DNA from: Lama glama
Taxonomy: Eukaryota
Assembly: GCA_028534125.1 (NCBI GenBank)
Contig: CM052839.1
Span: forward strand, 31,372,001-31,436,000
Length of the DNA stretch: 64,000 nucleotides
Reading direction: 5' to 3'
Shown: piece by piece, positions 21,801 to 23,113 of the stretch
Numbering within the stretch: position 1 is the stretch's first letter
Layout: the number at the start of each line of letters is the position of its first letter
Program-made: the position numbers and the translations under genes
Notes under the pieces: generated by a model
Databases searched by the model: none
Told to the model about the DNA's origin: nothing
What the model saw: only the letters and a program-made list of their open reading frames with translations

Positions 21801-23113
21801 AAGAAGTGAAATTTCTGTCCCAAAAGTCCTGCTCTGATACCCTCAATGCTGTTTCCTTCCTGGGGATTCAGGATACTCATTCAATTGTGGTCGTGCAGCC
21901 GGACGCCTGGACAGAGGACAGTGGCTTCCATGGTAAGTCTTGCTGTAAGCCTTCATCCAGAAGAGTATCTGGTAGAGGGCCTAGGTTAAGTGTGCAGATT
22001 ACTATGGTGATCATAGGTCTTAATGTCCTGTTTAGGTCAGCTGGAGTGGATGGTGCACCCATGTGGGGCTTCAGAAGGCCTGTGTCGTATGGGGTGGGAT
22101 GAGTTTGGTTCACCACAGGTTACTCAGTGCTTGATTAACACAGCTCTCAGCACTTCCTAGGTGCTCAATAAATTTGTTGAGGGAGGGTGTAGCTCAGTGG
22201 TAGAGCACATGCTTAGCATGCACAAGGTCCTGTGTTTAATCCCCAGTACCTCCGTTAAAATAAACAAATAAAATAAACCTAATCCCCCCCAAAAAATCTG
22301 TTGAATTAGTGAATGAATGGCTAAAATGTCCTTTTAAAACTTTACTGTTTATTTTGCATTATAAAAGTAGTACATGAACTCTTTCCATGAAGATGTTAAA
22401 TATGAATATTCATCACTTAAATATAAATGAGCACAGCCATAATGAAATAATCCGAGTAATCCCACCATTTGGAGATGATTGCCAGAAAATTCTTCCAGGC
22501 GTATGTGTGTATATATGTACATACATATATCTTACACAAATGTGATCATGGTTATCGTATGTTTTGCTTTTTCACTCAAGATACTGCAAACATATTTTCG
22601 CATCATTGAATTGCAATGCTGTTTTGCTCTCTGGTGACTTTTCCCTTAACAGATTGGAGCTTGTGTTAATGAAGTTGCCAGAGGCTGTAGGCTTTCAGCA
22701 GCAGTCAGTCTTCAGGCTTCTGAGTAAGGTTCTATGGCCTGAAGCATTGCTTAAGATCAACAGTTTTGCTCCTACCTGAGTAATTTTAAGAACTCATCCA
22801 GACAATGAATATATATATGTTCACGTATAACTGAAAGATTGTGCTCTACACTGGAATTTGACACAACATTGTAAAATGAAAAAAAAAAAAAGAACTCATC
22901 CAACCAGGTCCCTGGAGTAGATTGACTAGAATCTGATCTGGGAAAACATGAACTGACACTTATCTCTGCTTGTGTTCTCTGTCCCCAGTGATTGGGCAGA
23001 TGTGTGAAGCACCCGTGGTGACCCGAGAGTGGGTATTGGACAGCGTAGCCCTCTACCAGTGCCAGGAGCTGGACACCTACCTGATACCCCAGCTCCCCCA
23101 CAGCTGCTGCTGA
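3769..23113 (+). CDS. BRCA1: BRCA1, 3' part of CDS: join(3769..3895,5532..5722,8566..8867,11127..11214,13468..13545,14036..14076,16268..16351,19771..19825,21426..21499,21872..21932,22989..23113); 5' exons lie outside the window
   Basis: Eleven AG/GT-bounded exons splice into one frame encoding the end of the SQ cluster and tandem BRCT domains ([78 protein letters not shown]). Exon sizes 127/191/302/88/78/41/84/55/74/61/125 match human exons 14-24 except exon 16 (9 nt shorter). Confidence 0.98.
5532..5722 (+). CDS. BRCA1: BRCA1 exon 15
   Basis: tttctag|GTCTTCCCC...GATCTAG|gtaat; 191 nt; [16 protein letters not shown]. Confidence 0.95.
6801..7078 (+). mobile_element. L1 3'UTR fragment joined to an L1M-type tail
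   Basis: agactcacagacatagaaaacaaa...tatagcacagggaactatattca; flanked by direct repeat tatacatttga. Confidence 0.7.
7109..7563 (+). mobile_element. 5'-truncated L1 with TSD
   Basis: ccatttgcagcaacatggatg...; TSD ccatcccctaag at 7097..7108 and 7564..7575. Confidence 0.9.
7426..7463. repeat. (TA)n microsatellite within L1 3'UTR
   Basis: About 19 AT units seen directly. Confidence 0.95.
8566..8867 (+). CDS. BRCA1: BRCA1 exon 16
   Basis: tttcag|AGGGAACCCC...GAACTT|gtgagt; ends [16 protein letters not shown] (start of BRCT1). Confidence 0.95.
11127..11214 (+). CDS. BRCA1: BRCA1 exon 17
   Basis: ttgcag|ATGCTTGTG...AAAACAG|gtatac; [29 protein letters not shown]. Confidence 0.95.
11750..12380 (+). 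mobile_element. Ancient CR1/L3-like LINE fragment
   Basis: agaagacttaagggaacaagacaactgtcttcaaatatctcaagag and upstream RT-like remnants typical of L3. Confidence 0.5.
13468..13545 (+). CDS. BRCA1: BRCA1 exon 18
   Basis: ctgcag|ACGCTGAG...TATTTTT|gtaagt; [25 protein letters not shown]. Confidence 0.96.
14036..14076 (+). CDS. BRCA1: BRCA1 exon 19
   Basis: ctttag|GGGTGACC...GATGTG|gtaagt; [13 protein letters not shown]. Confidence 0.95.
14660..15520 (-). mobile_element. L2 LINE fragment
   Basis: ttcattcaa...gagcctactatgtgctgggcac (reverse of the L2 3' end) followed by purine-rich L2 body. Confidence 0.7.
16268..16351 (+). CDS. BRCA1: BRCA1 exon 20
   Basis: tttcag|CATGAC...AGAAAG|gtaaag; [28 protein letters not shown]. 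Confidence 0.96.
16525..16835. mobile_element. MER2/MER2B (TcMar-Tigger) DNA transposon
   Basis: gctcaagtcccttttataaaatggtgtag...ctctagattacttataagacctaatacaatgtaaatgct...gttggttgaatc. Confidence 0.75.
17080..17310 (-). mobile_element. MIR SINE
   Basis: cccattttatagatgagaaaattaagactcaaagaggttgagtacattgcccaag (MIR core). Similar cores at about 39.9, 43.2, 48.75, 49.5, 55.5, 56.9 and 61.9 kb. Confidence 0.7.
18406..18660 (+). mobile_element. Two adjacent tRNA-derived SINEs (about 18406-18492 and 18518-18660)
   Basis: Two tRNA-like heads (TAGCTCAG...GTTCAATCCCCA), each followed by an A-rich tail. Confidence 0.8.
18870..19066. mobile_element. MER3/MER33-like hAT-Charlie element
   Basis: ctgtccaa...ttggacag terminal inverted ends; ccacatttcaagtgctcaatag internal motif. 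Confidence 0.7.
19771..19825 (+). CDS. BRCA1: BRCA1 exon 21
   Basis: cccag|ATCTTT...CCCACAG|gtaag; [18 protein letters not shown]. Confidence 0.96.
21426..21499 (+). CDS. BRCA1: BRCA1 exon 22
   Basis: gtttag|ATCAACTAG...AGTGAG|gtaagt; [24 protein letters not shown]. Confidence 0.95.
21872..21932 (+). CDS. BRCA1: BRCA1 exon 23
   Basis: attcag|GATACT...TTCCATG|gtaagt; [20 protein letters not shown]. Confidence 0.95.
21935..22072 (+). repeat. Diverged local duplicate of BRCA1 intron-21 3' end plus exon-22 5' half (source 21326..21462)
   Basis: Manual alignment gives about 22 differences in 138 nt; retains tcctgtttag acceptor and QLEWMVH codons. Confidence 0.9.
22181..22293 (+). mobile_element. 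tRNA-derived SINE inserted in an L2 3' tail
   Basis: SINE body with A-rich tail; TSD aaat(t/c)tgttga on both sides. Confidence 0.85.
22801..22889 (+). mobile_element. Very short 5'-truncated L1 insertion
   Basis: Near-identical to the L1 3' end at about 7418-7524; perfect 13-bp TSD aagaactcatcca (22788..22800 and 22890..22902). Confidence 0.9.
22989..23113 (+). CDS. BRCA1: BRCA1 exon 24 (terminal coding part)
   Basis: ccccag|TGATTGGG...[46 protein letters not shown]. Confidence 0.96.

Follow-up and report, generated by a model that had tools for sequence, protein, structure and literature searches.

An ancient duplicate of the exon 22 acceptor in the last intron of artiodactyl BRCA1 is probably a neutrally decaying source of leaky cryptic splice signals

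Introduction

Short direct copies of a nearby template, with microhomology at their junctions, are produced by MMBIR/FoSTeS templated insertion and by serial replication slippage (PMC8421209, PMC3597517). Tandem exon duplication, e.g., SCN exon 5a/5b, places a copied acceptor and exon start downstream of the original (PMC12772994). In IL18R1-Short, an old repeat provides an intronic AATAAA ahead of the exon in which the last domain is completed, and expression and function were shown by long reads and assays (PMC13232192). In BRCA1 itself, intronic polyadenylation generates BRCA1-I15, a transcript that ends in an intron and contains intron-encoded residues; its product lacks both BRCT repeats and is stable (PMC6906494). 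Here and below, these systems are taken as the excerpts of the cited papers describe them.

We analyzed a 64,000-nt window of the Lama glama genome; all coordinates are those of the window, and all features are on its forward strand. The original prediction for this DNA held that a duplicated exon 22 acceptor in intron 23 of BRCA1 forms a lineage-specific alternative terminal exon replacing exon 24. Searching titles and the opening lines of abstracts, with the subscription literature mostly outside the scope of the search, gave no published description of the duplicate, and the available portions of PMC4231409 and PMC8605555 contain nothing bearing on it. We conclude, with a probability of about 0.7, that this is an old local duplicate, templated through microhomology and decaying neutrally, which carries leaky cryptic splice signals and makes no new camelid isoform.

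Results

The window spans BRCA1 from the exon that follows the large exon 11 and its two successors through exon 24, and exon 11 matches alpaca BRCA1 X1 at approximately 100% (99.7% by tblastn). Beta-globin in this New World camelid genome carries Asn at position 2, where the camel chain 3gdj_B of PDB has His; this change is the one given for llama, guanaco, and vicuna (PMC2927554). Exon 22 (74 nt, 21426..21499) has the weakest of the 17 real acceptors scored in the gene, and in its acceptor region (21405-21426) a rival AG lies 19 nt upstream, at 21405-06. Exon 23 (61 nt, 21872..21932) ends at the donor ATG/GTAAGT, and the coding part of exon 24 (22989..23113) has a strong acceptor and contains W1833. 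The first codon of exon 23 (21872-21874) encodes Asp here and Gly in six camelid RefSeq proteins; among the proteins matched this residue is Gly in 293, Asp in 24, Ala in 14, and Ser in 3, and the Asp is probably a tolerated variant.

A 138-nt duplicate (21935..22072) begins at +3 of intron 23. Its source (21326..21462) consists of the final 100 nt of intron 21 and the initial 37 nt of exon 22. Alignment of 21935-22072 with 21326-21462 gives identity in 116 of 138 columns (84%), the 22 mismatched columns comprising 21 substitutions and one 1-nt insertion, and the corrected divergence is 17%. This bears out the proposed copy of approximately 138 nt and 84% identity starting at +3 of intron 23, and the proposed coordinates of copy and source also stand, with the small correction that exon 22 starts at 21426. 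The copy-source offset is 609-610, with 609 nt separating the two starts. A DNA search of this genome matched only these two places, and the single nearby source in direct orientation is as expected of a local templated duplication.

The AG of the source is kept in the copy at 22034-35, exons 22 and 23 are both phase 1, and splicing of exon 23 to this acceptor would read an open frame of 41 residues to a TAG at 22158-60 (candidate exon with its AG, 22034..22160), followed by AATAAA at 22167, 22259, and 22267, all of which agrees with the original prediction. The first AATAAA (22167-72) lies in sense orientation inside the tail of a dispersed repeat (22161..22179), which we take to be L2, and is thus a repeat-derived intronic signal. 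The repeat is interrupted by a SINE and resumes near 22300; a 25-nt motif spanning both repeat halves has 38 exact matches in the genome, and the reversed control has 0. The SINE (22180..22299) is tRNA-derived, with a tRNA match at 22183-22254 (E 5e-5), and presumably belongs to the Vic-1 family. Its A-rich tail contains the AATAAA sequences at 22259 and 22267, a target-site-like repeat is present on both sides, and two further copies are found in the window.

Three features of intron 23 had been overlooked. The copy provides a second donor, GCT/GTAAGC (21933..21950, boundary at 21944/45), which if used would add four residues in frame. A cryptic AG at 22015-16, weak in llama, would define an 84-nt intron. 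Finally, reading directly from exon 23 into the intron gives an open frame of 56 codons (21932..22102) ending in a TGA at 22100-22102.

A regulated alternative last exon, entered at 22035/36 and ending at the repeat AATAAA, would produce a 1859-residue camelid BRCA1 with a new 41-residue tail. In its favor, AG, frame, and AATAAA are intact, and the acceptor scores the same as that of the real exon 22: with a small matrix, not MaxEntScan, trained on 15 other acceptors of the gene, the copy AG at 22034-35 and the exon 22 acceptor both score -0.6, and the exon 24 acceptor scores 5.8. By the same matrix, 206 of 1358 decoy AGs score at least as high as the copy AG, and 16 at least as high as the exon 24 acceptor. 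Within the BRCA1 gene, a tail of at least 41 residues follows 127 of 1324 AGs by chance, and an AATAAA lies within 150 nt of 132 of 1369 AGs, each roughly one tenth of the intronic AGs, so the 41-residue frame and the AATAAA are individually unsurprising. Against a last exon at this position, the AATAAA is followed by neither a second donor nor a strong U-rich element (24% U, compared with 40% at 23849). Most splicing from exon 23 likely goes to exon 24, whose acceptor is strong.

Use of the 22035/36 acceptor, which the original prediction required, was sought in a set of 377 BRCA1 proteins made up of the best 120 of 422 matches and, for each of 21 clusters, at most 15 members. The exon 23 motif is missing from 43 of the 377; in 327 it is followed by exon 24, and seven go elsewhere. 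None of the 377 listed proteins carries the predicted tail, and the 15 camelid models among them all end in exon 24, which counts against the alternative last exon. A search with the 40-residue tail against longer proteins, weak because it covered cluster representatives only, returned one candidate and no scored match, and a PDB search with the same tail gave 0 matches.

Six of the seven models among the 377 that leave exon 23 for somewhere other than exon 24 do translate the copy, in keeping with the earlier view that it bears usable splice signals, and the routes differ: the +12 donor in porpoises, the AG 19 nt upstream of 22034-35 in gray whale, and read-through in deer. Four porpoise models from two species gain four residues from the initial 12 nt of the intron, via the +12 donor supplied by the copy. 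These models with a BRCT2 insertion (P0019, P0150, P0154, P0157) include the X1 model of Phocoena sinus, and the porpoise +12 donor is the most reproducible use of the copy. Gray whale isoform X5, entered at the site homologous to 22015-16, has a 22-residue tail that is identical to the copy at 18 of 22 positions and is six nucleotide edits from the copy compared with ten from the source. Fallow deer X1 reads directly through the donor into the copy, and 25 of its first 34 residues are those of the camelid read-through; the deer and gray whale models share this frame.

At window position 21935 (donor +3) the llama has A, as the deer peptide implies, and the related species represented by the RNA contigs described below has G, as the porpoise peptide implies. 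Wolf and jackal models (P0043, P0319) enter exon 22 (21407-21499) in the shifted frame of the gray whale tail, but via the real exon. A fishing cat model (P0288) leaves exon 23 for an unrelated 31-residue last exon; derivation of that tail from this intron 23 was rejected, no convincing match being found in the window.

It is conceivable that the copy is wholly silent and that the whale, deer, and porpoise models are annotation artifacts, built, for example, from back-spliced exon 23-to-22 circle reads or from pre-mRNA cover. The different route taken by the model of each lineage would fit this, as would the restriction of the upstream-AG tail to just one gray whale model among 15 candidates listed and the presence of the same upstream AG in the source. 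The fishing cat model also leaves exon 23 for another last exon, so the copy is not required for such a departure. However, back-splicing would not explain the +12 donor, which is modelled in four records from two porpoise species, and we regard complete silence as quite unlikely.

RefSeq models are colinear with their genomes, and the copy therefore sits behind exon 23 in Tylopoda, Whippomorpha, and Ruminantia, three of the four named artiodactyl suborders. The duplicate had been supposed to be lineage-specific; translation of the same copy in whale, porpoise, and deer models makes it older and more widespread than that. Judged from the camelid DNA and these protein models, it likely arose once, before the camelid/whale/ruminant split approximately 60 million years ago. 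A single origin before the split would be the simplest account, with a firm lower age bound, and the 17% corrected divergence from the source fits an old event. The upper bound depends on absence of the copy in human, and to our knowledge human BRCA1 lacks it. None of the non-artiodactyl models among the 377 listed translates the copy after exon 23, which is weak evidence. A metagenome scan for mammalian exon 23 gave 22 loci, of which 0 were mammalian BRCA1, with no match past the motif.

The proposed junction 21932^22036 was also sought in RNA. It was absent from the contigs of four of 24 runs, a weak negative given that normal spliced mRNA is absent from them too, and no loose ends were present in the contigs from these four runs. 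The absence of normal spliced mRNA from all four indicates that contig filtering clearly drops relevant sequence, and a minor junction could be missed.

One of the four runs has no contig at the locus. The other three, from three studies, have one unspliced contig each, which starts inside exon 23 and runs over the donor into the copy, although one of them includes only four exon letters of exon 23. These contigs raise the possibility of an unspliced unit, in which exon 23 is extended and polyadenylated at the repeat signal as a composite last exon, or in which intron 23 is detained; either would produce a regulated drop in full BRCA1, and the copy would be incidental. The fallow deer X1 model is exactly such a read-through. 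Set against this, the RNA runs were selected for containing this stretch, one run also has an intron 22 contig, so that pre-mRNA or DNA accounts for the cover, and contigs cannot reveal 3' ends. A strong upstream donor suppresses cleavage (U1 protection), and the strong donor 235 nt upstream of the signal should do so here. The excerpted account of L2-derived intronic poly(A) signals cuts both ways: such signals make species-restricted isoforms, but an intact signal is insufficient for expression (PMC13232192). We consider an unspliced unit unlikely.

Two further comparisons of the RNA runs were discounted. Two runs have an intron 23 contig without an intron 22 contig, but the runs had been selected for this stretch and the records filtered. 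The word shares of the remaining runs are uninformative because the counts expected to be kept from 291 words, 95 for an unspliced relative and 90 for one that is spliced, are indistinguishable.

Across 250 nt, the three RNA contigs differ from the window at the same six sites and so come from a related species, which we guess to be an Old World camel. In this species the AG at 22034-35 is unchanged and the frame open, as an alternative last exon would predict, and the AG is apparently kept in gray whale too. However, retention of AG and frame over this distance is expected by chance in 85% of simulations. All three differences in the proposed frame are nonsynonymous (H>L, G>R, W>R), for which the chance probability is 0.36, counts too small to exclude weak selection; in the read-through frame, four of the six are nonsynonymous. 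The deer peptide implies two changes at the 22034-35 AG, followed three codons downstream by a 1-nt deletion, and also a stop. Judged from the protein, AG and frame, kept in the near relative, thus appear to have been lost in deer, an outcome listed by the original prediction among those that would refute it. On these grounds we judge a regulated alternative last exon highly improbable.

The original prediction also pointed to three synonymous differences between copy and source (CAA/CAG, CTA/CTG, GAA/GAG). They are present, but their value as a sign of selection on the frame is weakened. From the whale peptide, the CTA/CTG and GAA/GAG sites should carry G, like the camelid copy; this implies that at two of the three sites the copy has retained the ancestral base and that those synonymous changes likely arose in the real exon 22. 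There they would likely be the outcome expected of purifying selection. Mismatches between copy and source are equally frequent in the intronic (16 of 101 columns) and exonic (6 of 37) parts. Identity of the tails to the camelid frame is 82% for whale and 74% for deer, on a par with the 82% (928/1137) and 76% (859/1136) for exon 11, and exons 21-24 are above the tails at 95/103 (92%) and 90/103 (87%). Both camelid and deer have an open read-through frame (56 and 43 codons, respectively), although neutral simulations leave 34 codons open in 65-79% of trials. The substitutions look neutral, and selection on the frame is not supported.

The predicted products have 1859 residues from the 22034-35 AG, 1846 from the upstream AG, and 1874 by read-through, all without W1833, and the +12 donor product is predicted to contain an in-frame four-residue insertion. 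W1833 is the equivalent of human W1837, and its loss from such products agrees with the earlier statement that BRCT2 would be broken. Apart from the +12 donor, each route would cost the protein the end of BRCT2, with instability as the predicted consequence. In the excerpted account of PMC6906494, proteins truncated within the BRCT region are degraded, and a stable protein results only where the domain is lost entirely. Since BRCT-region truncations are degraded, escape from NMD likely yields no stable isoform. A new camelid isoform is not supported, and the copy likely leaks, at most, rare broken transcripts.

Discussion

We propose that template switching driven by microhomology created the copy once, in an artiodactyl ancestor. 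From the exon 23 donor, synthesis would have jumped 609 nt backward to a CCAT..AAGT stretch resembling it, used 138 nt as template, and then returned, possibly at the GGCTTC common to the copy end and the exon 23 end. Exon 23 ends in TTCCATGGTAAGT and the source starts with TCCCATTAAGAAGT; the junction similarities, CCAT..AAGT on the 5' side and GGCTTC on the 3' side, were noticed post hoc and are candidate microhomologies. The GGCTTC at the copy end is also found directly before the exon 23 donor. Such an event would have given the last intron a second donor (+12) and two weak AGs ahead of an AATAAA from an old repeat, and low-level leakage from the copied signals may take a route that differs between lineages. 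Alternatively, a 609-nt head-to-tail tandem duplication of exons 22-23 (135 coding nt, in frame), later trimmed by deletion, would give the same picture and is indistinguishable from template switching. Intron 22 (21599-21612) contains GCCTCAGAAGCCT, which is close to the letters at and just past the copy end (GCTTCAGAAGGCCT); this similarity may have arisen by chance or be left over from a longer tandem duplication.

A broader functional reading would make the ancient duplication a regulated alternative-processing module in all even-toed ungulates and whales, with lineage-specific use: porpoises would gain four residues in BRCT2, a baleen whale would have an alternative last exon, and deer and camelids would make a poly(A) isoform by read-through. 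The open read-through frame in deer and camelid, and the porpoise donor in two species, could mean real use and so speak against neutrality; the neutral appearance of the substitutions speaks the other way. We think such a module very unlikely. If it were true, BRCA1 dosage or BRCT binding would be tuned in a clade that includes very large, long-lived animals, and regulation of any one route would provide a natural means of tuning a tumor suppressor. The porpoise four-residue insertion is the best place to test for regulated use.

As the neutral relic that we favor, the copy may serve as a rare genomic marker of the artiodactyl stem. It also explains why several RefSeq BRCA1 models from whales, porpoises, and deer have odd C-termini. 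For read mapping it is a trap, since a back-spliced exon 23-to-22 read can mimic a linear junction into the copy.

Compared with the templated insertions of MMBIR/FoSTeS and serial replication slippage, the copy is alike in being a short direct duplicate of a nearby template with candidate microhomology at both junctions, but as a germline event it is fixed and tens of millions of years old, its junctions are decayed, and it is indistinguishable from tandem duplication followed by deletion (PMC8421209, PMC3597517). It resembles SCN exon 5a/5b in its copied acceptor and exon start, but it is only half an exon, lacks its own donor, is placed beyond the next exon, and bears no sign of coding constraint (PMC12772994). 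With IL18R1-Short it has in common the position of an old repeat's AATAAA upstream of the exon completing the last domain; the BRCA1 site is a candidate signal, and its product would cut the tandem BRCT fold rather than drop a whole domain (PMC13232192). Like BRCA1-I15, the transcript would end in an intron and include intron-encoded residues, but its product would keep approximately 1818 residues and break BRCT2. In this it is closer to c.5445G>A or exon 23 skipping, which the excerpts describe as degraded or deleterious (PMC6906494, PMC6635756). Among these systems, the copy behaves like a leaky cryptic pseudo-exon, formed by local duplication beside a repeat-derived poly(A) signal and probably without function.
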